Of a stretch of 62,000 bases of DNA, positions 3,844 to 56,800 are shown one piece after another. This stretch comes from Botryllus schlosseri. Lineage: Eukaryota. The notes under the pieces were generated by a model. The model searched no databases. It was not told the origin of the DNA and saw only the letters and a program-made list of their open reading frames with translations. The number at the start of each line of letters is the position of its first letter. Within the stretch, counting starts at the first letter, position 1. Made by a program: the position numbers and the translations under genes. The stretch spans positions 1,798,001 through 1,860,000 of the forward strand of contig CM119372.1 in NCBI GenBank assembly GCA_051294905.1, given 5' to 3'.

Positions 3844-3971
3844 AAGACTAATTGGCGTTATATCTTTGCTCGATGACAGTTTGTGAGATTCAGTGCTGGA
3901 AATTACAGAATCTTGTTGCAACTGCCCTCGATCTATGATCAGCCGCTGACTGAATTTCAGATCTTCTAGAT

Positions 3972-7481: not shown

Positions 7482-7734
7482 GTGTAATGGTTGTGCGTCC
7501 GGCTTCTCGGTCAGTAGGTCGTGGGCTCGATCCCCGGCTGCGTCGGACCAAAGACTCGAAAACTGGTATCCGCGGCTATCCTGCTAGGCGCTCAGCAATC
7601 ACGGACAGCATTGAGGAGAAAAAACGGGGGTGCGGACTAGATGACCTTACTATAAAGGCCGTATCGCATCTCCGTCGTCAAAGCATCTCGATGGTGCAGG
7701 CGAAAAAGAATACCATATCTCTCTCTCTCTCTCT
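7482..7734 (+). mobile_element. tRNA-derived SINE (Meta-domain-like), copy 1
   Basis: A/B-box head, ACCAAAGACTCGAAAACTGGTATCCGCGGCTATCCTGCTAGGCGCTCAGC core and (CT)n tail; near-identical to the copies at 34273 and 41605. Confidence 0.85.
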
Positions 7735-18202: not shown

Positions 18203-19555
18203 TTACATTTCCTGCGCGCCGATACTTTGTTGAAGATATTCTTTATACAACGCTTCTTTTTTACTTTTAACCTTCGATTGCACGTATTCCCGCCTTTCCA
18301 ACAAGGACTTTTTCAACCGTCTTCCGAGCGTGGGCCTTGTTTTTGAGGACAAATGAGCCAGAAGCAGTAGAATCAACGTGAGAACCGCCACACCGCCGAG
18401 GAAATGCCAATGATACGTCTTCGGGACAGCGGTCCATATCGAGGAAACGGGTGAAGTGTAATGACGCAGGTTGGCGGTGCCGACTTTGCCGAGAGTTGAA
18501 TGGAGGATATCATCCGACAAGCCAACGGCAAGGAAGTTAGCCAGAAACACCATCGGTACGAACAATCCGAACATAAAGAACAGACAACGGCGGCTTTTTG
18601 CTCTCAAATTATAGGATCTTGCTTCATCGTCAATGCGTAGTTTCTCATTGATAGCGTCAGCGATTTCAGTGCAGTCTTTTTCGAGCTGGTTCAAAGTATT
18701 TTGAATAGTGGCGTTGATGGTTTTTTCGATTTCCTTGCAAACCTCTTCAATTTGATTCACACAGCGACTTTGTTTACCCAACGTAGGTACATAGATTGTT
18801 GGCATTTCAAACCCGGTTCTATTCAAATTAGGTCTTTTACACAATTCTTGTACGATTTGCATCATAACCCGCTGACGATCGCTTTCATGACCAGCCTCGT
18901 CTGCCTTGCTGAGATAAAACTTCATTCTCTCAGCGTGTTTATCGCATAAATTTTCGACAATATTAAGTGTACGCTTGCACAGAGCTTGACCGATCGGATC
19001 GAAGAACACAAATATCAAATCGGCTATGTTGTTACCGAGCCATAAGATAGATTCGTTTACGTCGAAAGGATATTTCATATCACCATCGACAAGGCCTGGA
19101 GTATCAATGAAAGTTACCAGGCTGAATTTTTTCTGCTTCGAAGTTGATATCTCCGTTCCGATGTAATCAATTACGCCTTTCATGTCTTGAAGAGGTTTCA
19201 AGTGCTGGTATAAATGCATGGTCGCGTTTCCAGTCAAGGATTCTCTCTTACGGCCACTGGTGACTATAGTAAAGCCTTGCGTTTCGATAGCTACGCCTGT
19301 TCTTTGAACGTGTTCTTCTACGTACCAGTTGATAAAAGTGCTTTTGCCGGCGGAGTGATTACCTATCAGCAGCACTGTGATCTTTTTACGCGGTTCCAAA
19401 AGTTTGATGTCGAGGCTTTTCGCGATTTCGATCAGTCCGGTGGTTTCCTCCACGTATAAACGGTTGCATTCTTGCAGGATTTTTTCGTTCGCGGATAGTG
19501 TCGAGCTCGCTAATGCAGCAGAGCCACGAGCTTTGCCTTTGAGTTTTTCAGGCAT
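18203..19555 (-). CDS. Intronless dynamin-superfamily (EHD/sarcalumenin-like) P-loop GTPase with coiled coil and two C-terminal TM helices, 450 aa
   Basis: G1 GNHSAGKS, G3 DTPG, G4-like SKAD. Helical region IEEVCKEIEK..LEKDCTEIADAINEKL. Hydrophobic segments CLFFMFGLFVPMVFLANFLAVGL and FLGGVAVLTLILLLLAHL. Confidence 0.92.
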   Translation of the reverse strand: MPEKLKGKARGSAALASSTLSANEKILQECNRLYVEETTGLIEIAKSLDIKLLEPRKKITVLLIGNHSAGKSTFINWYVEEHVQRTGVAIETQGFTIVTSGRKRESLTGNATMHLYQHLKPLQDMKGVIDYIGTEISTSKQKKFSLVTFIDTPGLVDGDMKYPFDVNESILWLGNNIADLIFVFFDPIGQALCKRTLNIVENLCDKHAERMKFYLSKADEAGHESDRQRVMMQIVQELCKRPNLNRTGFEMPTIYVPTLGKQSRCVNQIEEVCKEIEKTINATIQNTLNQLEKDCTEIADAINEKLRIDDEARSYNLRAKSRRCLFFMFGLFVPMVFLANFLAVGLSDDILHSTLGKVGTANLRHYTSPVSSIWTAVPKTYHWHFLGGVAVLTLILLLLAHLSSKTRPTLGRRLKKSLLERREYVQSKVKSKKEALYKEYLQQSIGAQEM

Positions 19556-20713
19556 TTCTCAGCTGTTTGCTTTGAGACCGTTGAGAGCAAAATAAATTAC
19601 GCGAAAGCTGCAAACGAAAAAGGACCAAGCGACAGACTCGCAAAGATTGTGCAAGTGATGACGTACACGAGTCACTTTTGAGTCGACTTTCAATCAAATA
19701 TGCACTGAGGCGTGCTACCGTGATGTCGTACAGCATAAATATAAGGTTCGGTTTGCGTTCGGTGTATTGCAACTTTTGTCAGTTCAATACACCACATAAA
19801 TTGCGATACAATGAAAAATATTGGAAAAGGTGTCGAAACGTATTGGAGTAGTCTTTGGAATCAGACACCCAACTAGGCCCAGACCAGTGGTTCCCAATCT
19901 TTTTCATCTCGTGGACCCCTTCGCCGACATTTAAGCCAAAATCCCCACCCCCCAGAAGAAATCAGCCCGATGAGTAAAAGAGGTCAATTTTTCGCGCCAA
20001 CACCCGAGAAATAAGACAGGCGCTACAATGTTTGTTTGAAGCAATGCCGCAACAAAATTCTGTCGACCTACAAAAAACATTGGTCTTGCAGTAGTCTTTG
20101 GAATTAGACACCCACCTTGGTCTCGGCTTCAGAATATCTAGCCTGTTGAAGTGTTCGAGGTAACGAGAACTCCTAATCGTCATCTGACTCGCTTAAGTAC
20201 TGTCTCATGAAGGCCTGCATAGGAAGTGGGCCTGTTTTTACTATTTATCTCGTGGATTGGATTCATACTATAGGTATCCCTCAAGATTACATGGACCCCG
20301 ATCTGAAATATCCACTTCTATACCGACACATATGCCACATCCACATTCATTTTTATCGCTACTCTTTTCATGTTATCCTTTATTTCTTTTCATACGATGT
20401 GCATGCCCTTTATGCTCCAGGGAAGTGGTCCCCAAAATTTTTGTGGTCGCGGCCCAATTTCGGATTTCAAAATGTTTAGTGACCCACCTCTAAATTTAGT
20501 AGGGTGATTTCTCCGGAAATTGGGGGAAGCTAATCCCTGAGTAAAGAGTCAGCAGCCCTGGGTCTCCTAAAAGAAGAAAACGACCTTCCGATTGAAAACC
20601 ACTGCTCTGTCGTGAATAAGGGTTGCAACGCTCTGCTATATATCCGCTATGGAACAACAATACCACATCACGTGACTTATATTCACCCTTGGAATAAACG
20701 CAATAACCAAGCG

Positions 20714-25635: not shown

Positions 25636-27448
25636 CAGTGGTCGGGAACCTATGGCTCGCGAGCCATATATGGCTCTTTTGGGTATAAGATATGGCTCTT
25701 TGCCAAATATTTAATTTTGTACTGAATTGATCAATATCGCAGCGACTTGTTGGTAAATTTTCATCACGGCCAAAATAACTATCCTGGTGGCAGTATAAAC
25801 ATGTCTTTCAGAGGTAAAGACAATGCCGTCTTCAGGTTTAGGGGCTCGGACCCCCTCTCTTCAAAATCATCAAATTTAATTTACTGTCACGCCGGCGGCC
25901 AATATCACTCGCAAATTCCATGCGCCAGTATTGTTTGTGATATACTGGAACCGAATCTCGGCACCTGTTAATTGGCACGCTAATGATTACTTCTCTGATT
26001 GCGCCGTTTATTTAGTTGCCTGACATAACGACTACTCGTGCTGTTGAGTACAGGCTCTGTATCCTGGCGTGGTGGCAGCGATGGGATTCGAACCCACGCC
26101 ATCGAAATGACTACTGACTCAAACCTCCTGGCGATGTATCCGAATCGAAATCATGAATTGTGCGATACGTTGAGTCGAAGAGCACAGCAGATATGGCGCC
26201 GCCCATTTCAAAACGCAGTTTTCAAATACACATTGTCGTCCTGATCTACGGCGCGAAATGAACTGTTGTGGATGTGACATTCACAATTACAAACTCGAAT
26301 TACAAACAACGCCATAGCTATCCACGTTCCGTTTTCTCCACGTTCTGTGTAGTAAAACATTTATGGGTGTAGCGCAACGTTATGTTACCGCCGAATACTT
26401 TGAGAATGGAGAAGTCGGTAAGTATTTAGGGCGAAGATAATAAAGTTGGATTAGCAATAAAAGTCGATTATCGCGTTCGTCAGGATTTATCAACCTAGGA
26501 TTAAGGAAACCGGTTGATCGCAGCGCATAACGTGAGTGTTAATCTCTTGATTTATCAAACAGGAACAAACTATAGATAACTAGTTATCTATAAAAACTGC
26601 GTACCATTCCTACCCACCAATATTTCCGATAATGACCGTGGCGATGGTCTCCTAGGTAATAGCTTCACTAATTATGTACCCGCCATTGCATAGCGATACC
26701 AATATTCTATAATCCATTTCTTAGCTGTACCGAACGAATTGGACACGACCTTCATTTCGCTATGATGATAATTCGACATATTACAGTGCCAGTGTCGCTA
26801 TCAGCAGGCTGCTGTTTCATTCAACAAATTGACAACTGATGGCATATGACGCGTTTTCGCATTATGATGCAACAGATTACGCCACTTGATTGAAAACTCG
26901 GGACACCTCGACTAACGATCGGGCCTTCGGGCGTAACCTTTCCAACTTGATGAGTCGCGATTAGCAGTATTTAATCACACGATTAGCAATATTCCGGGTC
27001 AGCTAACTTTATTATCTCCGCCTGAGATGCATCCCGATTAGCAGTTTTTAATCACATGATTAGCATTCTCCCGGATCAGCTGACTTTATTATCTGCGCCC
27101 TTGGATTTTCGGAATCAGTGTGACAGTCACGTTCGATTAATATCAGTTATAATAAATTCTAAGCTACTTATACAAGGACTTGCGTTATCCTTGGTGGATG
27201 CTTGACCCGTCTGCGTCTTACCTCTCGTTTCGAGCTTTATTTTCGAGCAATAAATACCAGTTTTTACTGAAAAAATGTGGAGCACACGAGGAATCATATG
27301 TAGTGAGTTCGAATTAGTGCTACCATGACGTCACGAATTTCCAATTGTGACGTAACAGTTGATTGACATGTATGGCTCTTTGGGAGTTGAGATGGGAAAA
27401 ATAGGGCCAATATATGGCTCTTCGGGCAAAAAAGGTTCCCGACCACTG
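25636..27448. mobile_element. Non-autonomous hAT element (Charlie/SPIN-like ends)
   Basis: TIRs CAGTGGTCGGGAACCT / AGGTTCCCGACCACTG; ATATGGCTCT subterminal repeats; perfect TSD GGCTATAC. Confidence 0.9.
26070..26125 (-). pseudogene. Retroposed 3' fragment of mature tRNA-Leu (ends in CCA), flanked by an 8-bp direct repeat
   Basis: Minus strand reads GGTTTGAGTCAGTAGTCATTTCGATGGCGTGGGTTCGAATCCCATCGCTGCCA-CCA (variable arm, T-arm, acceptor strand). TCCTGGCG at 26062-26069 and 26126-26133. Confidence 0.75.
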
Positions 27449-29636: not shown

Positions 29637-32600
29637 CAAGGGCGTAGCCAGAAAAAAAATTTGGGGGGGGCGAAATTTTTGATGAGTCAAAGGGAGATAC
29701 AGAACGTTTGTTTCAAGATACCGCCAGCCGCCACCTGATGTAGAAGCCTCCTACTTTCCCACGAATTTGTGTCGGTTCACTAAAATTAAGATGAACGTCA
29801 CATCTGCATACTTTATCGCGGCGTGTCTGGTGTATCGTTGTAACAAAGATTAAAGATATCGCTATCTAGAGTATTACGCCATCGAAACAGCTATCCGCAA
29901 GAGGTATCATCGGGCTATGGGCATTTTCGCAATATTTAGTTTTCTTTGGTAAGTTTGTTTTTATGACTCCGGGTGTTTATATAGCTCAGTGGGGTGAACT
30001 CTCGTTGCGGTCTCAAAAATGTTGCTACTTGAAAAGATAGTGATCTTTCTTCTCAGCAAAACATCAGTGATTGCTTTAGTGTTATTCGTCTCATAATAAT
30101 CTGGTAACTTCTGAGTTCTGACCTGATGCCGGCCAATCACGGCTGAGTGGACACGACTTTCAATAGGCTAGTGATAACACAGTGTCTATACCCAATATCC
30201 GCAACCATTGGCTAGCTTTCTTGCAACAACATGGTCATTGAAAACAAATCATAAAACAGATGTGAGCAAAATTTGAATGTATTGCCAAAAACTATGAATC
30301 AATTCTATTTCAACTCTATTCGTCGCCTCGCGCCTGCCATATTCGTAACAACTCGATCGATCTTGTCCTCGGTCATCCTTTCGCGATGGCAATGAATCAC
30401 ACATAAATTTGAGAGGCGATCGGAAGTCATTGTTGAGCGTAGCCAGGTCTTGACCCGCTTCATGGAGGAGAATGACCTTTCAGCCTCCACCGTTGTTGCT
30501 GGCAAGGCCAGGATGACCTGGATCGCACTGTGCACGCTTGGATAATCCTTATCACTCAGAAGAAGGTCAAGCAAACTTTCCTGGTTAACTTGGGAGTTCA
30601 AAGACGATCTCCAGAGAATTACTTCGTTACCAAGGTTATCCAAAGAATACAAACGCTCAATCTCATCTAACTTGGCTGGCTTGTTTGGTGGAAGGATGGA
30701 TAGCAACGCAAGTAATGAGGGGTTGTCCCTGAAACGTTCCCGGAGAGAGTTACTCAATCCGTCGATGTACGGGACATATACCGAACGCCGGAAATATTCC
30801 AAAGCCGATTCAGCACAGACGTTAGCACGGTAAACTTGTACCTCAACTATTCTATAGGCATTCTCAGCTCTTCTACTCCGAGTACTTCACAGGTTTCTTT
30901 GTATATCTGCAGCGAAACTTCCGGGTCGTTGCGGTCGCGGTCAAGAATGCTCTGTAGAGAATTAAACAAGCTCTTCACGCATGGCATGCTGATACCAACA
31001 GTCTGGAGCTTGCGTGCTAGTGGTTTTATAAGAGCCGAAAATCTTCCAATCAAGCAAACAGCATAAGCGACCTCAGATCTTTCTAAAGCAGTTTTCAAAG
31101 AGAATGCCTTTCTCCTAGTCTCACTGCTTGTTTCCCTCGACAAAGAACCAAGAGCATCTAGTACACGCAGAAAATTAGACTTGAAGGTGCGGATGCTCTT
31201 ATATTTCTCGGACCACCTGGTTGGGCAGAATAACGGTATCTTAATCCCCAAAATGCTGCGCCTTTTGGGACTATCTCTGAAAAAACGGATAGTTTCCCTG
31301 ATGATGTCACAGGTGTTTCTGATTACAGGAACTTTACTTTGGTCGTTAATGACCAAGTTCAAACAATGAGAGGCACAGTGTACAAAGATTGCTCGAGGGT
31401 ACTTATCATGAATGCGTTTTTGTACACCACTCACGTGACCTGCCATCGTCGATGCCCCATCGTATCCCTGCCCGACCAATTTTTGAAAATCCAGCCCAAT
31501 GGTAGAGAGATGAGATAAAATAGGCTACTCTGCGGAAACGGAATCCATTTCAACAAATCCCGTGAAACTTTCGTGTACTTTATCACCTTTCACATACCTC
31601 AAAACAATGCTGAGCTGTTCTTTTCCGGCGATATCGCAAGACTCGTCGGCTATTACAGACACGAACGATTCGTTAGCCTCAGCGACGATCTCTTCAACAA
31701 GCATATTGCCGGCAATCCTGAGCATCTCATTTTGTATGGTAGGGCTAGTGGACTTGGCATTCCCGGACATTCGATCAAAATGTTTTATCAAATATTCGTC
31801 CCCAGCGTCCATGCGAAACTGAAGGAGCTTCATAAAATTTCCTTCGTGTTGGGAATGCCCACGGAAAGCGATGTTATTTGAGGCACAGAACATCACCATC
31901 TTAACTATCGAACTCATTATATTTCTATTTTCTCTCACTTGCACGCCATGTGCAGTGTTCAAGCTTGTGCACACATTTTGATCATTTTCCATACTTTCGA
32001 GAAAAGTTTTTGCAGCCGCAGTTGCTTCTTTATGGTAAGATAAGAAGTCTCTCGATGAGCCGTAGCCTTTTCAATAAATTTCTTGAAATCGATGCATGGC
32101 TTTTTGACAAAAGCAGCATTTTTGAGGTTACCATGCTTAAGACGTGCTTGCATTACAATGCAAATCTTGCACAAACCTCCTCCATCTGAGAGCTGGGTAT
32201 AGACCAACCATCTGGAATATCTATCATCATCGAGCCACACTTTAAGAAACTTGCGGCGATCTTGCCTCGTAGTATCAAGAAGTGGCACGTTTCTCAAAGC
32301 ATCCGAAGTCAGAAGTCTATATCTCTCAGCATCGCCAAGCTGCGAATGGTGGTCAAGAATATATCCAATATCGTTTGTTTTTCCCACCTCATATGATTTT
32401 TGGGGCTCTGGTATATCGGCAATTACATCTGACGCTTCTACTAGCGAAGGAACACAACTCACTATTCCTTCTGTTGGCTGCGCATCTCGACTCCTCGCAG
32501 GGAAAAAGCTGTCCAGTCTTGCTTGTTTCGATTTTGACATTGAAACGTAATGCGGAATCCAAATCAATTACAATCCTTAAGGCCTCTCTACACGGCACCG

Positions 32601-34272: not shown

Positions 34273-34534
34273 AACCGAGCGAGATAGTGTAATGGTTGTG
34301 CGCCCGGCTTCTCGATCGGTAGGTCGTGGGTTCGATCCCCGCCCGGGTCAGACCAAAGACTCGAAAACTGGTATCCGCGGCTATCCTGCTAGGTGCTCAG
34401 CAATCATGGATAGCATGGAGGAGAAAAAACCAGGGGTGCAGACTAGATGACCTTACTATAGAGGCCGTATCGCATCTCCGTCGTCAAAGCATCTCGATGG
34501 TGCAGGCGATAAAGAATACCATCTCTCTCTCTCT
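34273..34534 (+). mobile_element. tRNA-derived SINE, copy 2 (full length)
   Basis: A-box TAGTGTAATGG, B-box GGTTCGATCCC, (CT)n tail; TSD CTATAATC. Confidence 0.88.
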
Positions 34535-34554
34535 CTATAATCTAAAAGAACGGT

Positions 34555-34668
34555 TTCTTGGAGGTACAGAGCTCCAACATATAATTGAATAGTTTATTCA
34601 TATTGAAACGAACTGGAATATTTTCGGCTGACACTCGTCAGGGGTAATCGTCAGCAACTAGTAGAGAG
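34555..34668 (-). ncRNA. Hammerhead-bearing repeat, copy 3 (3' strand of stem I mutated)
   Basis: Core CTGACGA..GAAA and the pseudoknot are intact; GGGT is replaced by CAGT. Confidence 0.55.
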
Positions 34669-35705
34669 TTCACAAGAGCATCGTATATCAACAATCTTAT
34701 CAAAAAATATGACGTCACCAGCATGAAATTTTGAATACGAGGGCGTTCAATGTACTATTTTTAGATGATACACGAACTCTTATTATTGACACAGCCTTCG
34801 GCAGACGTATTTTGATAAAAGTCGACTCGAAGGCACACAAATGAAAGTGTGAACTGCCCTCCCGACGACACGAAATCCAAAAGACTAAAAATAACATGGA
34901 TGGTGACGCAGCTCCTGTGTTGGCAAGTTTACGAAGACTTTCGACACGGCACCATAAAATGATTGCGATGAATCTAAGGCGGTTTGTGTGGGGATACCAA
35001 GTGTCCTTTTTCCGAGGATTTGTTCTCCTTTTTTCAAGAAAACCGACGCCCAAATGTCCTCTTTTTCGCCAATCGGCTGGCTTTCTATACAATTGGACAG
35101 AAGGACGACTAAAAAAAGGTCTGCCCAACGTGAATTAGCAGCGGGAACTGGTTTTCAGGCACATGCCCGGAAAAATGACCTTTTTTAATTCAACCAACGA
35201 TCGATCGATTACCATTTTCCATAAAAATATCCCGTTTCAATGTCTGTTATTACCACCCGCAAAAGAAACCTCTGTCTCGGATTTTAGTATATGGTATGGT
35301 AGCCCTAGGTTAATGACAACATATGACCGTGATAATATAAAATTGTCCTTTCGATACACGTGAATCCATGACAAGGCGGGGTTATGACTAGAGCCTTACC
35401 TATATCGGATTTTGAGTCGATACCGATAACTAGAACCCTCGTCGATAACCCCAATATATTCAAAAGACACTGTGTCTAGCTTCAGGCACATTTCCCGAAC
35501 ATCAGAGTATTTAGACGCCTATAATCAGATGGGGTCAGTAATGAAGTAAATCTACTTTTTCATAGTACTCGAGTAGGTTTTCCCTACCTGCACTAATTAC
35601 TCGCAAATGGCTAGGATTGTAGACTACTTCTATTTCTACTAAACAGTTTTCAGTTTTTTAAAGAATACTTATTGTTTTACTTAATCGCAAATCGCTACTT
35701 CCACT

Positions 35706-36174
35706 CAGGGTTCTAATGACTCGAGTTTGTATTCGATTCATTATGTATGACTCGAAGCAAATCATATCACTCCAGACTAGGACGGTCAAGACAGACATTT
35801 CATTGTAACTTCGAAGAATAGTAAAGTCACCGCATTATTGGTATTTCGTCTATCAGTCCTGATACTTGGGGAGTAGTGCCTGAAACTGTTAGGACTGAGG
35901 GAAATTTCGATATTATGAATGCGAGCCATTCTATATAAATCAAACAGATTTGAAAAAAAGTGGGTTGAGCCGAATTGAACTCAAAGCTGAACAGTGAACA
36001 TAATGACTCGGACTCGGGTCACACTACTATGTCTCGGACTCGGTCCTCTACTCACTGACTTGGACTCGGACTTGACTCGGTGGTGAATTGAAAATGACTC
36101 GATTTGACTCAGTCAAAACTATAGAAGTAAGATTGACTTGTGACTCTCAACTTTGTGACTTGGTTACAACCCTG
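35706..36174. mobile_element. hAT-type MITE, family A, nested in an AGTAGAAGT-family element
   Basis: CAGGGTTCTAA...TTACAACCCTG; perfect TSD CTTCCACT. Confidence 0.88.
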
Positions 36175-37580
36175 CTTCCACTTGTACTTCAGTAGTAATT
36201 TACATTACCTCTACTTCTACGATGACAACTTTCACCGCATATGTCAGTAAGCTATAAGAAATAGATGGATATTCCCAATCGCTGATTATAGTTCTCCGAG
36301 TACCTACTACCATATGCTATGACTTCACGAAAGTTTCCGATATTTTTTGGCATCTAATGGCCGATACCGATATTCGTTTCATAGTCCGACATCGACTCGA
36401 TATTATAGGCGAACCGATATTCGGTCGGGCAATAGCTGTGATTGCATTCTGGAAGAGATTTCAATTTACGGCAGTGTTATTTTCTTTCACTGCACGTGAA
36501 TGCTGAGCACGTGGATATGTTACTTGTAAGTATATAGTATACACAGTATACACACTATGGTGTAATTCTATCGTGATATACCTGATGGCAATAAAGCTGG
36601 GAACATAATCACGCGAAACCCAACGAAAGGAAATGACGTCTAAGTGACATATATGCTGCTTTCAGCTCTCGTCATCAGCAGCATGTTCGTCATGACGCTC
36701 GCGTATTTTAACTAATGAAACTATTATGACCCACGAACTCGCATGCATTTAAATCGCAACCACTTCCTGTTAAAGAAATAAGAGAAATTACCGTACTGCA
36801 GAATGCGCTGGATAGTGTTATGCTTGGCAGGAAAGCTGCTTCTTAATCGTATAATTGAGCTTTTAGAAAGGAGACGCACATATATACTATTAGCAATATG
36901 AATATTTATTGAAGTCATTAGAACGTTAATCAAAGAGTGCACCACTTTGGTGCGATGCACTGGGGTGTACCAAATACCGCATTACAGTAGGCCGATACTT
37001 TATCACAATAATTAGGCAAGTTAATGCTTTGGAACAAATTAACAGGATATAGGCCTACTATATATGCTACAATGATCATAGCAAGTGTACGCAGCTTCGC
37101 AGCTTATGAATTTCATATGCAAATGTTTCTCATATAATTCAACCGTTGTTAAATACTACGGATTCGATGTACTATGTGGATCAGGGTGCACAAGTTTTGA
37201 ATAAATGTTAAAAGGGTATACCATTCCGGAAAAGGTTGAAGATCACTGCTCAGTGCTCAATTTGAACTGCAAATTACCAAACAAAGTTGATTTCTGAAGC
37301 GGATATTACGACATTCATATGCAAGAGCTTATAGGCTAGGTTTGCATTTAAAACAATAGTGTTCTAAAATACTTTGTTTGAAACATGTTTTAAGCAGTGT
37401 TGAAAATGCATTTCAAACAATTGTTTTTTTTCAAACGTTGCATAATTATGTAAATATTTTCGAAAAAACATGCCTACGAACGATTTGCACCCAATACAGT
37501 CGACGTATATACGATGTCGGGTGGCTGGAACCCTCGAAATCGCCTTCAGTTCAACAGTTATAGCATTGTTTATATAAGAT

Positions 37581-38654: not shown

Positions 38655-41600
38655 ATGCGAAAACATTACAAACCTGCACTATTCGTCGACTTACTCCGGA
38701 TGATTTACTTCATAACAACGTGTAAGTTATTGGCCAATACACTATTGGTCCGCGAAGAAATCTATTCACACACACGGTCATCTTTTGATTCGTCTGTTGC
38801 TGTTTCAGGGTCCGATCATGCGTCGGCAAATTGTAGATACAGGATAACAAAAAACTCGGGAGCGATTCAATCGCCCGAATTTCCAAGAGTGAGACAAGAA
38901 CACAACTGCGTGTGGGACGTTACATTGGAAAAGGGAACGTATTTAAGATTAGATTTGGATACAGTACAACTTTTTTACAAAGATGAACCGTGGTGGTCCG
39001 ATGAGACGGAAAACGTTTGTTCACAGACGCTCAAGATTGGCCAAGGTATTGTTCTTGTGAAAACATCCTTCATAGGCGAGCAATAACGATTTATTCTACA
39101 TGAGTGGTTATTGGCTTTTTCTAACCCGGGAACACTAATCTAATCTAATCTTCGAGCATTCGCGGAACCCCAAATTCTCGCCGATGCACAAAAACGAAGA
39201 TCTACAGCATTGTACATCACAACGTTACTACATAACACTAATTTACAAAATGTACTGTGCATCAACATAGTATTGAAAGAACAAAATCATTAAAGTATGA
39301 TTTTCACACAAACGAAAGCATTATAAGATTATTGCGAATCAGTGCAACGTCTGCTGCTGCCTTTTTTTATTCCAGTTATAAATGACAGGCTTCAACTTGG
39401 AACGTGTCATCGTGGTGTACAGTCGAAGCGCAACAGCGTGATACCAGTTGATTTATTGCAAATTAATTTATAAATATTGAAGATAGAATTGGCATTCAGA
39501 AGGACGAGGTTTCAATTTGGAATCCCGACTACTGCTGCGTTCGCCAATGAACACGACGTGCCACCCCGTCGACTAGTAATCGGGCTAATTGCCTTCAAAC
39601 AATGATGACCAAGACAGGCGTGTCATCACATATATACATGAGTTGAGTTTAGGGTTGCATTTAAAACAAAAATCAATTAAAAACAAACATATTTGAAACA
39701 AGGCCAATTTAAAACATGTTATTTTAAAGTCATGACGTCACGAATATTCGGTTGTGACGTCATAACGAATCAACATTGACAGTCGAAAGTATAGGGTAAA
39801 TGTAGCTCCTTAGACGAAATTTCTATACTATTAAGTGTTGAACCGACTATTTTGAGTGTTCCAACCATCCCATATCGATATACATAGTTCGATAGTTCGA
39901 TATCCCACTCATGAAAGTAATGAAAATGAATTATCCTTCCTTGTGTATAGTGCATCAGGTTGACAATGATCATGCTCAATTGCTCATATCAAGCGGAATG
40001 ATCCATAATTCTGTAATCTAGTGATGTGATCGAATTGACATCTGTGCTGAATTATATCGATTGAGATTCCGTCTCCTACATACATTTTTCACGCTGCAAT
40101 TACTGATTTTGCAGAAGACGTTGTTTGCCATACAACAAGTCAAGAATGTTTCATCTTCCACCTCGACAACGGATGTACCATCCCAAGCAGCGTATATCAG
40201 AAGTGCAATGTATATAAATGGAGTTATCCGTCCGTCCGAATAAGGTTCACATCTGATGGAGAAACTGGATGGATTCGTTATAAAAGGAATTATCCAAAAG
40301 GGTTTAGGATGCTGTACTCCAGAAATGACTGCATTGGAGGTAAATACTATATATGTTCGCCCCGGGAAATATTTTTGGCCGTGATTAAATCACAAATCGT
40401 AAATAAAATTATCAACAAAAAGTAGTTTACAAAGTCTGGTTTGAATCAATTATAGTAAAAGGGGTTTGGGATGCTTGATGGCAACTTTATCTAATATCAG
40501 TCCGATACAGAACAATGCACGCGACAGCATTCGGGTTGCTTTCTAGAGGCGCGATTTAACTCTTCACTTTCAGGCACTACCGAAACCACGCAAACTACGT
40601 TATCCAAAGTAACCACAACGCCGGAAATATTAACAAGTTCCAGTCGTGTTACCACATCGCCACTCACAACGTCACAGCACGCCACGGCGTCGAAAGGTCG
40701 CACGAAGCAACCAATTGCTACCACAAACCAACCCACCTCGAATGACGCATCAATTCAAGACACAACACATGCGTCACCACATAATGGCGCCGCTCAAAAA
40801 GGAATGGGAGACGGTGCCTTGGTGGCGCTAATTGTATCCTGTTTCATTTTATTATTGCTGACTGTAGCCTTCGTCATCCTCCTAATTTCTCGAAAGCGGT
40901 AAGTTCGTAAATATTTTAATGCGATAGCAATACACACTCTCGTTCATCTTATCTTAGGAGAGAGAGATGACTCCACAAATTGTGAGATATTTGCTATGTA
41001 CAGTGCAAGCCCTAAAGTTAAGATGGTAGAATGTATTAGAAGAGCTTCTTGGAGGTACAGAAAATCAATATACAATTAAATAGTATATTCATATTGAAAT
41101 GAACCCGAATATTTTCGGCTGACACTCGTCAGGGGTAATCGTCAGCAACTAGTAGAGAATTGGATGTATTAGGTCATCATAACACGATCGCTTTCTACAA
41201 ACGCGTACAGCATCATGATCCAGCATGACCTAAAAGGTGACAAACCAATTAGCTTGTGTAAGAGGCTGTTAGATTGAAACTAATTTGCAATAAGCGCGTG
41301 ACAGGGGAAATGTGCTACGGCGTGGTCATGTGGACTGCTACCCAAATAGTAATCCTTTAGGAATTTATATATATATATTCGTAACCTTTCGCACAGGACG
41401 ATATGAAATCAAGGCAAATCTATGTGACTTTTTTCATTTCGTTACTACCATCAATCCAGCAGAGGTGGTAGAAGTAGTCATCGATGATAGTCAAGTCAGA
41501 GTAAAAGTAACGCCATAACTGTATACCTAATCTAGGGTTACCATACGTCCTCCTTTGAGAGGATTTGTCCTCCTTTTTCAAGATATTTAATCGAAAATGT

Positions 41601-44343
41601 TTCCCGAGAGAGAGAGAGAGAGAGAGAGAGAGATATGGTATTCTTTTTCGCCTGCACCATCGAGATGCTTTGTCGACGGAGATGCGATACGGCCTTTATA
41701 GTAAGGTCATCTAGTCTGCATCCCCGATTTTTTTTCTCCTCCATGCTATCCGTGGTTACTGAGCGCCTAGCAGGATAGCCGCGGATACCAGTTTTCGAGT
41801 CTTTGGTCTGACCCGGGCGGGGATCGAACCCACGACCTACCGATCGAGAAGCCGGACGCACAACCATTACACTATCTCACTATCTCGAGGTAGCCCAAAT
41901 GTCCTCCTTTTTGGCGATTCGTCTCTAGGCGATTGTATACGGACAGCAAAAATGCCATAAATGACACGGAATCTGGATTTCGACACAAGTGATGGCAAGG
42001 TTGACTAAAAAAGGTCAACACCAACCGATTTTATTTGGGAGCGGGTCTTTCGTGAGTAGAGTTGAAAAAATGATCTTTTTCAGTCAACCTAGTAATAGTA
42101 CCTGTAAAAAATTGAAATTACCCGTTTTCTGGTCCGCTATATTGTATCTTTTGTGACTTGTACAAAATGTCCTAATTTCGGATTTCAAAGTATGGTAACC
42201 CTAACTTAAAAAGTCACATTGCACATTATCTAATTTACGTCACTATAGAATACTGGTGCGCAAAACGAGCTGTGCACAAACAACAGTGCTCAAAGAACAA
42301 AACATGATTTTCATACATACAATAAGATTAGAATGAATGTGCATATTCTGCAATGTGCATGCGTGCCTTCTATGTGGAACCGATGGGGTTCGTTCGAACT
42401 CCAGTTACCACTGTACTAGAGCAGGGGTATGCAGTTTACATGGAAAATATATTAGCTACACAATTATATAATTGAAATATCTATGGTCGAACTGCTGTGT
42501 CACTTCCGACCCAATAGATCCCCAGACATGAGAGAAACCGAAGTGATGGAATGATGAAATTTCATGAATAAACTTGAACTTGAAATTGAGATCCATTTTA
42601 TAGAAGACAAAAAGTGCACACTAAGAGTTTTATACAAATAGAGACAAAAAGTAGTTATTCACAGAAGCGAAAGTGCCAATGCGGAACAGTTATATGCAGT
42701 TTACATGGAAAATATGTTAGTTCCACAAATATATAATTGAAATATCTATGGTCGCACTTTCGGCCCAATAGATTCTCAGATACGAGAGAAATCGGACTCG
42801 CGGTTCAATAGTAATAAACCAAATTCCGACGTCCGCGTTTCCAATGAAATATCCTGTATTCCTTAGAACGCATATGCAGGGCTAACACCAGATTACGACT
42901 GAATCAAAGGGAGCCTAGAACATGCCAACTTATATCGTCGTTAACCTACGCCACTGTTTTAGCTGTTCTTAACTGTATTTAACCGGACAATGATCGTATT
43001 TTGCCAATTTCATTGTTCGCGAATAAATGTGTTTCGACTTGCCACTTCATAAACCCTATGATCTGTGTATTATCTATATTCAAGTGAAAAGCGAGAGCAC
43101 GAGTTAACATTTAGGAATCAGCTGACTGGTCCGGCCCGCGAGCGATTTGAAGGCTTGAATCCGGCCCGTGACGCAATTTGAATTTGACACCCCTGCAGGC
43201 CTGCAGTAGACCAACCACGTTTTGAATATTCACGTCAGTACAACGCTGTGCTCTCTGGCATGGGCAATGGGCAGAGTTACCACAAAAGAAGTGATATTTT
43301 TTTAAATAAGTACTAATACAATACCAAATATCATGATCATAAATTTCAATATATTTTGAACTATGAGATGCGCACGATACCTGACACCGATATTGGGGAT
43401 AGCAAGACACCTTACTTGCTGAACGACTATCTCCTCCTAAACCTAAAGCTTGATCTAGTGGGGGCGCTCCAAGCCCCGTTTTCTGAGTATCTCGGTCTTG
43501 GCATTCTCTGAGCCACTGCACGTCAAAGCAATATGCCTAATTGCCCAAATGCCCATTCATATATCAGCTGATTTTTCCTCGATGGAATGATATTGCTAAC
43601 GCCGAAGCTGTTTTAGCTGGTGCGGAATAGTGATGTTGAGCACAGGCGAATAGCTTATTTTTAAACAACAACAATATTTTTGAAACTGAAATCAAATACA
43701 GCATTTCGAAATGCTTTACTTAGCGTTCTCCCGCCATCTCAAATCAGATCGCGGGCGTCATGCAGCCCGCGAGTTGGTGACCTCCGTACTAGAGTAATTA
43801 CTGCATGTAGTAAAAGCCTAACTGGTTATTTCGAGAACGTAGGCGATTTTCGTTACTGAACGCTTCTACAATCCGCTTCGCATATATTTGACAGCACGAG
43901 TGCCAACCCTAACCCATTATTGCACACGCAGAGCTATGGACAGAACGGAAGCTAAAAGCAACAGCAAAGACGCGGAGATGGTATATTCCGTTGCATACGG
44001 TCGACTCGATGTTGGCGGATCCACTGAAAGTCTCGGCAGGTCTACTGTCGCTTCGCAACAGAACATAGAAGACGAAGGTTTCATATATTCAACAGTAGCT
44101 GTGAATCAGATAAACGGCAGCTCGCAGCAGACCAACACGGGCCTCAAATCTGACAACGCGACTTACGAAACAATGCCAGACATTGTTCACGTCACTTCTC
44201 ACGCGGACTGCGACACGTACGCTAGCGTAATCACGACCAGCGACAACAAAACGAAGCGCAAAACAACCTTCAGATATAAAGTGGATTCACCGGCTCCCCA
44301 CCAGAGCCGACAGATGGTAAACAATGTCCTCTATGAATACTGA
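38655..44343 (+). CDS. Type I membrane protein: signal peptide, CUB domain, Ser/Thr-rich stalk, TM helix, tyrosine-motif tail, 421 aa; exons 38655-38721, 38809-39045, 40115-40339, 40574-40898, 43932-44343
   Basis: CUB motifs CRYRITKNSGAIQSPEFP..NCVWDV and VRIRFTSDG..KGFRMLY. TM ALVALIVSCFILLLLTVAFVILLI followed by SRKR. Phases 1,1,1,2 are consistent; 1266 nt. Confidence 0.88.
41043..41163 (-). ncRNA. Minimal type I hammerhead ribozyme with pseudoknot, intact copy (predicted cleavage between 41107 and 41106)
   Basis: RNA: GCUGACG-AUU-ACCC-CUGACGA-G-UGUCAGC-C-GAAA-AUAU-UC^GGGU. Stem I 4 bp, stem II 1 bp, palindromic stem III AAUAUU, loop II complementary to the 5' GCUGACG. Confidence 0.72.
41533..42203. 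mobile_element. hAT MITE, TAGGGTTACCATAC family, interrupted by a SINE
   Basis: TIRs TAGGGTTACCATAC / GTATGGTAACCCTA. Confidence 0.8.
41605..41880 (-). mobile_element. tRNA-derived SINE, copy 3
   Basis: Reverse complement of the SINE at 34273; (GA)n on the + strand. Confidence 0.88.
42422..43786. mobile_element. Degenerate hAT non-autonomous element with an internal duplication of about 110 bp
   Basis: CAGGGG start, GGTGACCTCCG end, perfect TSD TACTAGAG; 42428-42540 is repeated at about 42693-42790. Confidence 0.6.
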
Positions 44344-50800: not shown

Positions 50801-53800
50801 GACACAAACCTACATATGATTTGTGATGACACACCTGTCTTGGTCGCCATTGGTTGCATGTTATTAGGCAGGATCAGTATAGTCCAGTGCTTTTCAACTT
50901 TTTGAGCACTAACCTCACCTCTTTTTTGCAAAAAAAAAATAAATTCATCCGCATAAACCAACCGAAAATGGTTGGAGAACGCGCAGACAGCAGTTGTACG
51001 TAACGCAGCTCTAAGAAAGATCCTGACGCACGCGATTTCAAATTTGGGTACATCATTTTCCTGCGCGTCGCATTTCTACTGCACTTGTTGTACTAGTGTC
51101 TACTCAGATTGCAACAGCGGGCTATTCGGTGACCGGGCATATCAATATCGAAGGTTTTCTGGTTTTGGCCAACTATAGACGGTTATTTTTTATCATGGTT
51201 TCATCGGCGCCGATCATTTTGACCCCTCACTTTTCCCAGCCGTATATGAGACCCATAACGTCATGTTTTTATGTGACCCGGCGCCGTCAATATGCTCTCG
51301 GGTATGATGACTAAGATCAAAAGTTCTCAAGCGAGTGTACTATTTACCTCTCCAATGGGTCAACTAATAATACAACTGGATTTAGTCACGGAATTGCTGT
51401 GATTCTGGCAATATAAGTATTCTAAACATTGATCAAGTTCACAATAACTTGTCGAACTACCAATATATATTACACTGGTCAACAAAATTAAAAAAATTTT
51501 TTAGGCAGAACATCTGAGAGCCGTTTCTGGGGTTTTTGAGGTTGCTGATTACGAATATCACATTAGTTTTGTCAGATTGGCTCTCTGTCAGAAGATATTT
51601 ATACCCCTAAAAAAGCCCAAAATTACTGTATTTACCCTTAAATATTCCACTTGGTGGGAAGAAAATCGTAGTTTTTTCTAATTTTATACTGCGCATAAAT
51701 GGCTAATTGACTATGAAGAACCCTCATGTCATTCTCAGTCATTTTATCAATATTAACATGGTATGATGCGAAATATCTGTTTGTCAAAAAAGCAGTTTGT
51801 CAAGCCTAAAAATTGTACTTTTCCAAAACGGAAATTCATCTTCTCCTGTATCAATTGGTCATCCTACCAAGATTAAAGAGGAGTAAAAATCTATAAAATT
51901 TGTCCTTGAAAGGCTTAACTACAATACTCATATGTGTCTCATTTCTTTTGACTGGTAAATGGATAATTTTCCACTGAGTCAACGAAGTGGGTATACCTAG
52001 TAACCCTGTAAAACGAGAAGCTTAAATCTGGTATCTGGTATATTCGAATACCGATGAAAGATTCCAATTTCACATTAGGAGGAGTTGACAGCATGTAATT
52101 TCTCCTAAGACGTAGTAAATAAAACTTTTTAGCTGATCACAAAGCACCCAACTACAAACAGTTGGTCCGAAAATTCGTATCTGCATATCGAAAACTTGGA
52201 ACAAACATGAGCATAAAAGTTCACTTCCTGTTCAGTCATCTTGATATATTTCCCGATCTTCATGTTAATTAGCAAGGGGAGAGGTTCTAAGAAGACATCA
52301 GAACAACAATAGAAAGATACCAGGGCAGATGAGATGAACCATTGATCATATTACGTCAGACCGTTGCCGGAACCTTTCGAGAAACTGCACTAAATAGCTT
52401 ACGGGCGAAAATCGTACAAAAAATCAATTTCGACTTAAAATATATCAATAATATTGTATTCCAACTGATTATTTCAAATTTACAATGGGTGGTTGACGTA
52501 AAACTGATTGAATTAATGCCACGTTATTTGAGTATCTAGGTAAATACTTCTATACATGACTGGAGTTTATTTACGTACATGATATCCGTGAAAGTCTGTA
52601 ACTATGATAAATCTAATACCCCAAAATATAGTGCTGTTGCTGTATTTTGATTTAATATAGTCTTCTGTGCGTAAAAATAACAAGTAGATTGAAGTTCTAA
52701 CCTTTATAGTATCACTAAACCGATTTTATATCTAGTCATTACCGCAAAAATGGGAGATTTTGGTCAAAACAGCCCCATGGGTTATCTCCACAACAAGAGC
52801 CAATTTCAAAAAAACTAAGGTCATATTCGGAATCAGTGCCCTTCAGAACCCCCAAAACCACTCTTACTTTGTTTGCCTAAAAATACGTGTTGACCAGTGT
52901 TATATATCAAATATGTGAAGGCTACCAAGGTTATTTCTGACAGTTTTGAGAAAAATCACTGCCTTTGAGTCAAGTCAAGTCACTCGATTTCTGGAGATGA
53001 CTCGAGTCAAATCAAGTCAATTTTTTAAGGTGACTCGACTTAAGTCAAGTCATGATTCAAGCCAATCAGTATTGAAAGATGTGTGAAGTACAGATCCAGT
53101 CGCTATTTATTATCAATCAAGTTACGAAGAACATTGTATCGCTCACACAAACGGAAATGCTAAACTATAAGGAGGTATGTGATGAAATATGATACGATGA
53201 AATACGCAACCCATCTGCACATCCATAATATACAATTCAAGCCCGAGCCAAATGTTCACAAGTAATATAAGTTATAGAAACTATATATAGAAATATAAAT
53301 TATATCCGTTCGATTTACATCATACAGAAGGCTTGTTCTGAGCAGTTTATAGAAGAGAAATAAGTTGCTATATAGATTATAGAACATAGATTGATTACTA
53401 CTAGCCAACGTATGGTTTGCGATAAATTTATTTGTGACATGACATAAAAATGAAGGTTCAGGTAAACCTGTACGTGCAATCGATAAATGACTGATTGCTC
53501 TCACAGGACACACAGGTCGCCAACAGTACAACCACGAAGTCGACACCGATTACATAATGACATGACTCGAAAATTTCACTTCGAGTCACAAGTCAATCCA
53601 AATTTTTAAAACGCAGAGTCAAGTCATTTTTGCAAAGTGACTCGAGTCAAGTCAAGCCATGTGAAAGAGTTGACTAGAGTCAAGCAATGGATCGAGACGA
53701 TACGACTAATGATGCAGGGACTTTAGAGAGCGTCTGACCACCGAAGCAGCCAGACGCAAAAAATGAAGTTAACAACTTGAGGCATCGATACCCTGTAACT

Positions 53801-56800
53801 GCATATATGGGGTAGTATTGAGTACGGCTGCTACGAATAAGTGCAGACAATTTCCCGTTTCATCGCCATATTAATTCTTCATAAGTTATCGGTGTTCGAT
53901 TATTTTATGCCCCATGTTCACCGTCAAATATATTTTTCCATGATATCAGATATCAATTATAATTAAATAGGAGATTTTGTACATTATGAAAAGTCATCCA
54001 TCCATCGGATAACCGATTGCCGGGGCTTGTTCTAAGCCCGTTTTCGATTTATGAACTTCAAATCTTGTTTACATCTGAATTCTATGTAGTTAAAGCCCAT
54101 AAAGACCAATAAGAAAAGAAGAGAGCAGCTAATTTTGTGAAGCATTTGATTTTGTGATTTTTTTCACCTATCTGAGTGACATCGTTGTTAAGTGTTGATA
54201 CGAATTCCTTGAGATCTAAGATTCGTCTGTTCGTCGTGGAAAACAGGCCTTCGTGACGTGAAACGGTTTCTTTCATGTTGGCGATTCCCTGAATCGCGCT
54301 TTTGATTCGTCTTCCATGCGATGCCACGTCTTCATCTGTTTTTGTTATCCGCTCTGCGACGTATTCTTCCAAGTGTATTCGATTACAAGTCAGTTCTCTT
54401 TGCATTCGAGACATTTTTTGCTGTACTTCAGCAGAACACACTGCTTTAGATCTTTTGTGGCTTTCAAATCTTTCCAGCAGATATTGGAAATTTTTTTGAC
54501 AATTTTCTTTAAATTTCTTTAAATTCTTCTTAGATCGTAAAAACTTCTCGCGCCAAAATACTTCGCGATTCAAACCCTGTTGGCGTAGATCATTCAATTT
54601 CCTGTCGGTATTGAGAACTTCCTCTTCGAATCGACTGACGGCTGTAGTGTGAAGTTCCGATAACGCACCCATTTTTGAAAATATAATGTCGATAAGACTC
54701 GCTAAGCATCCTGGCGATTCCCGAACCATTTTATACATGCTGATATCACGTAGTGAAGCAACGGAAAGCCGACTGAAGGCAAGGGAACGAAAGACATCCT
54801 CGAAATGGTTCTCATTCATCCCAGGGCCATTGTCAACCCACATCTTCACCGCTTTCCACATTGTCTCTTCCCCGTGAGATTGATAGAGAAAGTCTTCGGA
54901 AATATATCCAGTCATAGTATTCACAGACAGATATGAGATATCCACGCTGTACGCAACGGAGTCAAAGTTTGACAAAATATAGCCGTCCGTCTTCTCAATG
55001 ATATCTTGACACGAGTGTCGTTCACCCATACTTCTCATGTAACAGCAGTTTGTTTCATCGATTAAAAAGTATTGTGGTCCCTGTTCGCTCAGTTCTACAA
55101 GACCTCGCAAACTATTTGCGAACTTGCCGGCACCATTATCTGATGAAAATATCTTAGGGAATGAAGCTTCCCGCTCCGTACACGTTTTGAACCACTCGAC
55201 AATGCGCCTGAACTCGAATCGGGTGGACGGTCGTTCCTTGATGATTCCAACGTAATTTATGAGATGTTCTTGCGTTACTAACGTCAAAAACTCGTCTCTC
55301 TGGCAGGCTGTTTCGAAGTTGGACGCTATATATTTATCAACAGCAGATATCACACCGTTTCTCACTCCATACCTGGTAGCGAAATCCTTGATACGAAAGC
55401 AGTTGGTGATCTCGAAATCGGCGGTCTCGTAAGAATGCGCCTCTCGTCTTTCAGTCACAAACCGGTGACAGTTGGGGCACGATGCCACGTGATCATTCGT
55501 GAGAACAGACGATTTGAACTCGCATTTTGAGAGTCTCTCCATGGAAAATGATGAAACGAGGTCACAACGCAATCCAGTATCATCGCTCGTAATCTGCCGC
55601 ATCTTACATATTATTATATTCCACTCGATTTTCGCTACGTGGTGAGATCTCGCGATCGTTTTCAACAAATCCCGCAGGGCGGCAACTCCCAATTCATGGG
55701 CGTTATCGATTCCGGGCACATGCTGCCGAATGAACGACATCGCAGTGGATTTCAATGAGTTCAAGTCGAGCATCATCGACAGATTGGCCCACTCTACGCA
55801 GTTGCTCGTCGATAGATTTCCCTGCATGAACTTGGAACAAGCCTCTACAGCTCCGTTGAGCAGCCAGAGATGTGACAGCTTTAAAAGCTTGGCAACGTTT
55901 TTCAACGTTAGGTTTATATCTCCAGTGTACATGAAATCGATGCACTGTTCGACTGTGTCTTCGTCCTGGTCAACCGTTTCACAAAAACCTTGATGAGCAT
56001 CTTTCATTTGGTTCGATAGCATAGTTGAGAAATAAGCCGACGCTGTCCGTAGTATAATACGATGCGTCGGGAAGGCCTTGTTCGAGACAATAATCCTGAA
56101 GTCGCAATCTATACCTTCCTTGCGACTTCTGTTCATAGCACGCCGCTGCTTATCCCATGTATCAACCATTTTCTCATCTATCAGTTTCAGTTGAAAGCGA
56201 ATCAATTATGGGAGGTAGATTTTGAATAACGATATGCTTTGCAGTTTGCACGCTCTTTCGAGAATTGGTCGTTGTATCCGAACACTCACTGCATTGAATT
56301 TGGAGATAGCAGTACATAGATCCGCTAACGCCGTGTTCAACGTATATATAGAACGGTTGGACGGTTTAACAGTTTTACAAACAACAAAAGTTGATTCTAT
56401 CTGGATTAATTCATTCGTACCAAATTTATCCTATACATGCTCATTGGTCAGACACCTCTATACACACACATATGAGGTTGGCGTTGCCCATAGCTTTCAG
56501 AGAACATTTCAGTCAATAAACGTTACTTACTTCGAATTAGCCTATTATATTTAGCATGGAGTATACCATGTGAAAAGAATTCTCAGCAACTTTCCTAAGT
56601 GACCCGTGACTCGTAACTAAGGCTGAGCACAATGATCTGAGTCCAGTAGCGAGAGATGATGTTTTCTAGTACTGATACGAAACGCTCCTCGCTACTAAGA
56701 GTTAGTTAATCAACGGAAATTATAGTTTTGACTGCATTTTCCACTGTGGAAGCCTTTTAACCTCATTGGTTGGCTTAAACGAAACATGTAGTACAAACAG

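Follow-up and report, generated by a model that had tools for sequence, protein, structure and literature searches.

Introduction

Minimal type I hammerhead ribozymes have been described in the pseudo-long terminal repeats (pseudo-LTRs) of metazoan Penelope-like elements (PLEs) by Cervera and de la Pena in 2014 (PMC4209133). Helix II of the published PLE hammerheads is long (6-8 bp) and has a 5' base that bulges out, and tertiary contacts are said to be lacking (PMC4209133, PMC6155905). This report deals with a repeat located at about position 41043 of a stretch of 62,000 nucleotides (nt) of Botryllus schlosseri DNA (assembly GCA_051294905.1, contig CM119372.1, positions 1,798,001 to 1,860,000 of the forward strand), called the window throughout and numbered from its first letter. 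Almost certainly this repeat represents the 3' pseudo-LTR end of a retrotransposon of the Penelope/Poseidon type that is young, autonomous and very abundant. The overall explanation favoured here, held with good confidence, is that this young Penelope-like element carries a pseudoknotted ribozyme of the dimer type.

Pseudoknots have been predicted for all three hammerhead types, in about 40% of the representatives, by Perreault et al. in 2011 (PMC3088659). The variants of Lunse, Weinberg and Breaker (2017) are reported in PMC6765202 to be PLE-associated, to have a short stem III and to cleave as dimers. Type I hammerheads with a helix II of 1-2 bp are found in the 5' untranslated regions of chrysoviruses and fusariviruses, where cleavage drives cap-independent translation (PMC13725137). 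The available part of PMC10085705 has no addition on PLEs. The known PLE hammerheads are slow and in need of dimers or of protein, and were dispensable for insertion in the one in vitro system.

A candidate hammerhead in the terminal repeat

The minus strand from 41146 to 41103 reads as an earlier note on this DNA had described it, with the core CUGACGA, GAAA, C17, a stem I of 4 bp and a stem II of 1 bp. The elements CUGANGA, GAAA and UH follow each other in type I order in the 41043 copy, and the 44-nt motif, as judged from its letters, is a hammerhead of type I in which a putative stem II of 1 bp is combined with a palindromic stem III and a pseudoknot between leader and loop II. The cut is predicted between 41107 (C17) and 41106. 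All parts lie on the minus strand. The 5' leader strand of the pseudoknot, assigned by covariation, occupies 41141-41146, and is followed by the 5' strand of stem I (41133-41136), which pairs with the 3' strand at 41103-41106; in the alignment of 44 copies described below each of these columns is paired in 35-41 copies, and three of the four pairs change on both sides. The core (41126-41132) leads into G10.1 (41125), the 7-nt loop II (41118-41124), C11.1 (41117) and GAAA (41113-41116). Stem III and loop III are formed by the palindrome AAUAUU (41108-41113), replaced by AAGCUU in other families, which is the putative dimer interface; its centre pair is G-C in 31, U-A in 12 and of another kind in 1 of the 44 copies. 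The second pseudoknot strand corresponds to loop positions 2-7 (41118-41123), position 1 (41124) being variable and unpaired in most families. Seven pseudoknot pairs had been counted earlier. The seventh, a G.U in the 41043 copy, forms in 10 of the 44 aligned copies only, and the pseudoknot is hence given as 6 bp long.

The genome was searched in 495.5 Mb distributed over 219 contigs. The exact 44-nt motif occurs 2,539 times, and not once in the reversed control, so that its presence is not due to chance; the anticipated abundance of a ribozyme-bearing retroelement family is borne out by this number. When the core pattern is relaxed and the loop set at 7 nt, 8,197 matches are obtained (6,858 + 1,339; 2 and 3 in the controls). 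By the same pattern loops of 6 and 8 nt are rare, with 39 and 171 matches against 8,197. The best-scored genomic matches to the repeat are 97-99% identical to it (40 scored of 492 candidates). A loose pattern was also run on the window, and gave 38 matches, a number reached by 1 of 100 shuffles; overlapping matches were counted, and this result was left unused.

An Rfam scan of the window retrieved no hammerhead at E<=5, and only weak miRNA-like hairpins and a weak match to the transfer-messenger RNA (tmRNA) model. The search of the genome with RF00163 gave no match, the controls being silent as well. The 41043 copy folds no better than its shuffled versions (z from -0.37 to -0.98), a measure uninformative for pseudoknots and dimers.

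Covariation of pseudoknot and stem I

Four window copies and 40 genomic matches, hand-picked to span loop variants from 100 listed of 1,339, were aligned, and four apparently truncated copies were retained among the 44. Covariation of the pseudoknot and of stem I across genomic copies had been set beforehand as a test, and was found in several families. The six leader/loop II pairs are formed in 87% of cases, against 79 +/- 1% after shuffling (0/500), a test that overstates significance because the aligned rows are related and hand-picked; when the strands are slid, pairing falls to 6-34%. Position 1 of the pseudoknot changes on both sides among families (G-C, A-U, U-A), as do positions 3 (U-A, C-G), 4 (G-C, A-U) and 5 (A-U, G-C). 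The four pairs of stem I, which lies outside the search pattern, show both-sided changes in 12, 0, 13 and 15 of the 44 copies, and the centre pair of stem III is kept in 43.

Family representatives tell the same story. Each of the 11 carries either the AAUAUU or the AAGCUU palindrome. Leader and loop taken from the same representative form 6/6 Watson-Crick pairs in 10 of the 11, and five pairs plus a G.U in the remaining one; foreign combinations of leader and loop reach 6/6 in 0 of 104, with a mean of 3.8. That the pseudoknot is real and selected is considered very probable.

The parent element

The flanks of three genomic loci (L004, L016 and L018) lead into an open frame with reverse transcriptase (RT) and endonuclease motifs. 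A tandem array is present at one locus; its periods are 2,692, 2,692 and 2,693 bp, and two of its units differ by 1 mismatch. The unit of 2,692 bp hosts one open reading frame (ORF), P0001, of 848 amino acids (aa) from its AUG. Both things for which a search of the genome had been suggested, copies beside an ORF with RT and GIY-YIG domains and tandem arrays, were thus found, and the postulated parent exists in the form of this ORF within tandem units. Of 9,050 candidate matches of the element protein to the genome 109 were scored, and all are 91-100% identical; seven of these have stop-free frames of 857-860 aa.

RVT_1 is recognized in the ORF with a Pfam E of 7.8e-9, and in 17 of 18 aligned relatives; a GIY-YIG domain is recognized in 5 of the 18. 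Invariant in all the 18 aligned proteins are the residues C731, C733, H752 and H791 (CCHH) and the DKG motif D270-K271-G272, and a CX2-5CxxC zinc finger is absent from the linker between RT and endonuclease in the same alignment. According to PMC8557442, a CCHH with two cysteines between GIY and YIG and the DKG are defining traits, and a zinc finger in the linker marks Neptune and Nematis. By these sequence motifs the element is assigned to the Penelope/Poseidon clade. Protein relatives number 3,263 among 8,000 candidates, the best 120 being 40-64% identical; among solved structures the element protein has a single weak match, to an RT (E 8e-4).

Truncated ends and their insertion

The ribozyme begins 106 nt past the stop codon, and the predicted cut falls 14 nt ahead of the next AUG; the repeat therefore includes the first codons of the ORF. 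At the 41043 locus the ORF start (AUG at 41092-41090, minus strand) runs into the tail over 41036-41092 and matches the N-terminus of P0001. The upstream homology varies from 0 to 1,208 nt across 30 fetched loci, many of which have an inverted 5' arm. The 3' ends were surveyed at 47 motif occurrences in loci selected by protein, where overlapping loci were not fully merged: relative to the AUG, 16/47 end at +14 to +28, 15/47 at +48 to +61 and 1/47 at +216, while 15/47 continue. The tail is about 35 nt long. PLE tails of 30-40 nt are described in PMC8557442 and PMC11167929, and the two clusters of 3' ends inside the start of the next ORF represent this tail.

Copies extend 40-90 nt beyond the cut site, and every one of them reaches past it, which suggests that the template of integration is either uncut or re-ligated RNA. 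Flanking words are duplicated at three window copies, with lengths of 9 nt (41043), 11 nt (13098) and 7 nt (9245), and no clear duplicated flank word was seen at the other three (34555, 4188, 1185). For the 41043 copy the putative target-site duplication lies at 41031-41039 and 41164-41172; its outer letters may be microhomology. The loci L001-L030 were left aside as evidence of a target preference, since the query by which they had been ranked included flanking sequence of the window.

All the five copies named in the earlier note exist, at 41034-41164(-), 4172-4313(+), 34555-34877(-), 13047-13187(+) and 9245-9313(-), and the list was right except for a sixth, coreless piece at 1185-1249(-) that had been overlooked. 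The notion of a fixed unit of about 120 bp had to be abandoned: the repeat is the 3' end of an element of 2.7 kb, cut short on its 5' side to a variable extent and inclusive of the element's first ~20 codons. All six copies are dead-on-arrival truncated ends of this element, and an intact ribozyme is found in one of the six, the 41043 copy. The latter (41034-41164, minus strand) is a 5'-truncated solo copy consisting of a 3' pseudo-LTR piece, the intact ribozyme, the first ~19 codons and the tail, 96-98% identical to the full unit of the locus L061. The copy at 34555-34877 (minus strand) is older and longer. It is 85% identical to the unit over 324 nt, retains a remnant of the endonuclease C-terminus (tblastn to residues 813-833 of P0001), and its stem I is broken. 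The 13098 copy (13047-13187, plus strand) is intronic and antisense, a short 3' end without tail in which C3 of the core is changed to A, flanked by the duplicated word of 11 nt. In the 4188 copy (4172-4313, plus strand), which follows a zinc-finger gene of the plus strand about 410 nt past its stop codon and probably beyond its predicted poly(A) signal, the core is intact, the palindrome is broken and one pseudoknot pair is mismatched. The 9245 copy (9245-9313, minus strand) is intronic and sense, is cut inside the ribozyme so as to begin at GAAA, and is flanked by the 7-nt word. The sixth fragment (1185-1249, minus strand), 82-83% identical over 65 nt (E 6e-13), is antisense within the zinc-finger gene.

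A short element resembling a miniature inverted-repeat transposable element, with terminal inverted repeats of about 15 nt, spans 3971-4360, and the 4188 copy lies within it.

Sister families in this genome and beyond

In one sister PLE family the complete ORF shares 58% identity with P0001, and the ribozyme architecture is kept with different letters. Another sister family of the same genome (L237-L248) features an 8-nt loop II with an extra U before C11.1, and corresponds to the 171 pattern matches mentioned above. Sequences of this 8-nt-loop family were fetched after the alignment had been made. They form 6/6 pseudoknot pairs in 8 of 12 cases, 5/6 in three and 4/6 in one; the leader predicted for the family was one letter off, a G.U pair taking the place of A-U.

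A scan of metagenome and viral contigs gave at least 128 pattern matches, 112 of which have enough flank. Among the matches listed, the pseudoknot and stem I are present in 70 of 73 members of one metagenome repeat family, and the architecture recurs in one of the 39 other metagenome and viral matches (L226). The viral contigs contributed 7 pattern matches, none with the architecture. In the metagenome family (L109 and some 70 like loci), as in L226, the ribozymes adjoin remnants of PLE ORFs. The pseudoknot of L226 is built of an entirely different hexamer, and the AUG of the L109 family is inside stem I, 3 nt past the cut. In 12/12 representatives an AUG that begins a similar N-terminal peptide lies past the cut, at a distance of 3, 10, 14, 19-21 or 41 nt.

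Proposed mechanism and alternatives

In the mechanism proposed here the pseudoknot would replace both the normal stem II and the contact between loops I and II, and would keep stem I and stem II in their active arrangement, as may be supposed from known hammerheads, among them the fast type II ribozyme in which a 1-bp stem II goes with a 6-bp pseudoknot (PMC3088659). Stem III appears too short for a monomer, and two motifs would accordingly pair through the 6-nt palindrome (compare PMC4209133, PMC6765202); on balance, cleavage seems to need the dimer. The ribozyme would cut tandem or read-through transcripts at unit boundaries, either freeing unit-length RNA or trimming the 5' end before the AUG, probably with the assistance of the element's own protein, as in PAc, the Poseidon element of Anolis carolinensis. 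Integration would use uncut or re-ligated RNA. Solo copies such as 41043, which have no partner in cis, would for the most part be silent. The variant retains a Watson-Crick tertiary contact that covaries, the mark of fast cleavage in other hammerheads, and thereby suggests selection on catalysis; the ribozyme is probably competent under some condition.

Several observations weigh against this mechanism. RNA was monitored in three runs of raw reads from standard and single-cell libraries, 3-6% of each, from which 2,509, 7,068 and 5,082 reads were aligned. No pile-up of read ends was seen at the cut site in the three runs, in which coverage across it is deep and 5'-OH ends are poorly read. The nested hammerhead fold, with the pseudoknot uncounted, lies 10-16 kcal/mol above the predicted minimum in 11/11 representatives, and in the 41043 family strong alternative hairpins sequester the core, GAA pairing with UUC. 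Covariation counts rest on related, hand-picked copies; position 2 of the pseudoknot (C-G) never changes on both sides, and position 6 does so in a single copy. The core and the G10.1-C11.1 pair were fixed by the search pattern, and are hence no evidence. P0001 itself has no Pfam match to GIY-YIG at E<=0.05, though the motif aligns. Finally, ribozyme mutants of PAc were unimpaired in insertion in vitro, and cleavage required protein (PMC11167929). As to the reads, 68-98% of those aligned continue into other sequence, and depth in the ORF interior is near 0-7, against the deep ribozyme region; most of the motif RNA is thus likely to be passive host transcript, uncut.

The same data can be read differently. 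The fold may be kept for a non-catalytic job, as a binding site of the RT/endonuclease, a folding signal, or a promoter or translation element, with cleavage slow or incidental. This would fit with integrated copies that always reach past the cut site, with abundant uncut RNA whose ends do not pile up, with the poor cleavage of minimal PLE hammerheads in vitro (PMC4209133), and with insertion that proceeds in vitro when cleavage is abolished (PMC11167929). The explanation is nevertheless unlikely, though with an appreciable residual chance, as families ~40% apart in protein retain all letters of the catalytic core together with the palindrome of stem III, a conservation that a binding site alone would hardly require and that is partly biased by the search pattern. 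If, conversely, the pseudoknot made the monomer active, sense solo copies would cut host transcripts and be counter-selected. A type II hammerhead with a 1-bp stem II and a 6-bp pseudoknot exceeds 1.2 per minute (PMC3088659), and the sole intact window copy is antisense. That fast ribozyme is, however, independent of a palindromic stem III, whereas the palindrome here is conserved by both-sided changes, which points to dimers; moreover, RNA reads carry the motif in both orientations, and a single intact copy is too few for an orientation count. Activity of the monomer is therefore judged clearly improbable. The complementarity of leader and loop II might also be an accident of descent: the leader of the 41043 family repeats the first letters of the core, CUGAC, the core offers loop II an alternative partner (-5.4 kcal/mol), and the families compared are related. 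Different families, on the other hand, alter different pairs on both sides, and the L226 hexamer is wholly different, while the core stays fixed, so that an accident is very improbable.

Short copies are numerous, and the pseudo-LTRs of PLEs are the source of retrozymes (bioRxiv 10.64898/2026.07.22.740005), hence the thought that short copies are a separate non-autonomous family, either a non-LTR retrozyme or akin to short interspersed elements (SINEs), spreading by small circular RNA. At the locus L061 (3730-3821) 12 reads of the single-cell run X21 return by 92 nt at a point just within the ribozyme, 22 letters of other sequence being interposed; a genomic partial tandem is a more likely source of this joint than a circle. 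In 30 loci, where inverted arms also occur, the 5' ends are spread continuously over a distance of 0 to more than 1,200 nt upstream, and no short tandem array is present among 65 loci, the only array seen having the full period of 2.7 kb. On the strength of the variable 5' ends, which reach into the ORF, and of the exclusively 2.7-kb tandems, the retrozyme or SINE interpretation was ruled out, scarcely any likelihood being left to it; the retrozyme option of the earlier note is replaced by truncated ends of an autonomous element. A more speculative proposal, itself rather improbable, is that in a widespread subgroup of Penelope/Poseidon elements a pseudoknot-activated, switchable hammerhead starts the mRNA of the element, the ribozyme being off while loop II is paired with the core and on when it is paired with the leader. 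It stems from the position of the cut, which precedes the AUG in 12/12 representatives, and from the hairpin between core and loop II, predicted in 11/11 representatives at -0.4 to -6.3 kcal/mol and weak in several; the value for the 41043 family is the -5.4 kcal/mol quoted above. Once switched on, and dimerised within a read-through or tandem transcript, the ribozyme would cut at 3-41 nt ahead of the AUG, and translation of the RT/endonuclease would be licensed by the 5'-OH end, which is uncapped, as is reported for the hammerheads of fungal RNA viruses. If true, a switchable ribozyme at the start of the mRNA would answer what PLE hammerheads are for. The dimer-type ribozyme borne by a young PLE is retained as the preferred explanation.

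Host genes and other features of the window

The host assignments made earlier proved right. The 13098 copy is antisense and the 9245 copy sense in a minus-strand beta-propeller gene, and the 41043 copy is antisense in a plus-strand CUB/transmembrane gene, between exons of which it appears to lie. The beta-propeller gene (16744-8541) has eight exons, corresponds to the 359-aa P0122, a protein with a match to BBS7-type beta-propellers, and hosts both copies in introns. The intron-split zinc-finger, CUB and BTB-BACK genes of the window suggest an animal. From these orientations selection for antisense insertion had been surmised. The surmise is unsupported, because the core of 13098 is dead anyway, the antisense intronic fragment at 1185 is coreless as well, and 5' truncation, which yields losses of this kind, explains the missing core of 9245. 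The four other core-bearing or sense window copies (13098, 34555, 4188, 9245) are all damaged or truncated. In the single-cell runs the reads, summed over the two ribozyme bins, divide by orientation into about 820 vs 1,278 and 696 vs 779, the library type deciding which of the two is sense.

Other repeats are interspersed in the window. A repeat of ~250 nt, 91-96% identical among copies, is found at 7482-7730, 34278-34536 and 41617-41881, and one copy abuts the 34555 element; with its (AG)n end, it looks like a tRNA-derived SINE. An abundant repeat rich in GACTC/GAGTC palindromes occurs in both orientations at 1880-3470, 11650-12720, 14580-14700, 35700-36180 and 52970-53680. The minus strand hosts at 30305-32567 a frameshifted remnant of a hAT-like transposase, recognized by motifs and a weak match to DUF659, and at 26030-26150 a tRNA-like stretch, which has a weak Rfam tmRNA match (22 bits), is uncalled by ARAGORN, and is probably a tRNA pseudogene or a SINE head. 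No tRNA gene was called in the window by ARAGORN. Two further frames lie on the minus strand: a single-exon frame of 451 aa (18203-19558) for a P-loop GTPase of the dynamin family (Dynamin_N E 1.6e-10), which has hydrophobic segments at its C-terminus, and a single frame of 707 aa (54082-56205) in which BTB and BACK domains are joined by a tail resembling a coiled coil, without a Kelch match.

Comparison with known systems

PLE hammerheads, their copy numbers, the dimer-type stem III and each structural part taken separately are already known. What seems new is the combination in a PLE of type I, a 1-bp stem II, a 6-bp pseudoknot and a palindromic stem III, which may already be published: no pseudoknotted PLE hammerhead with a 1-bp stem II was found in the text of literature and supplements, and figures, gapped alignments or the 2017 paper of Lunse et al. 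may contain it. The family is young and has intact tandem copies, and its about 8,000 motif matches go unseen by Rfam in the window. It also provides a construct of 44 nt, for which compensatory variants occur naturally in at least five families.

The motif resembles the PLE hammerheads of Cervera and de la Pena in being type I, in its pseudo-LTR position, in a stem I of 4-5 bp, in the G10.1-C11.1 pair and in the palindromic positions 15.2-16.2 and loop 3. Both also come in thousands of single copies, which are dispersed and derive from truncated elements. It departs from the published ones in having a 1-bp stem II and a 6-bp pseudoknot in place of their long helix II. The variants of Lunse et al. 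share with it the association with PLEs and the short stem III and, according to PMC6765202, cleave as dimers, as is proposed here. Animal non-LTR retrozymes carry type I hammerheads related to PLE pseudo-LTRs (bioRxiv 10.64898/2026.07.22.740005), but are short non-coding tandem repeats, whereas the repeat described here is the truncated end of a coding element.

Among the closest systems is PAc (Frangieh et al. 2024, PMC11167929), which similarly has a single ORF with an N-terminal domain, RT and C-terminal GIY-YIG, tandem units, a ribozyme at the junction of pseudo-LTR and ORF, two clusters of 3' ends 30-40 nt apart in the ORF start, and reads without ends at the cut site. The arrangement differs. 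The ribozyme of PAc encloses the AUG and cuts 26 nt downstream of it, with ends near +111-118, whereas the predicted cut precedes the AUG by 14 nt here, and ends fall at about +20 and +54. No pseudoknot is mentioned for PAc in the available part of that paper. The chrysovirus and fusarivirus hammerheads (PMC13725137) are also type I, with a 1-bp helix II, just ahead of an ORF, but feature a long helix III and a rate of ~0.01 per minute, and no loop-loop contact is seen in them as far as the available text goes. The metagenome ribozyme of Perreault et al. offers a structural parallel, as there too a 1-bp stem II is traded for a 6-bp pseudoknot between the sides of stem I and stem II. That ribozyme is type II, is found outside retroelements and is active without a palindromic dimer interface, whereas the motif of B. 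schlosseri is type I, with a dimer-type stem III, and resides in a PLE.

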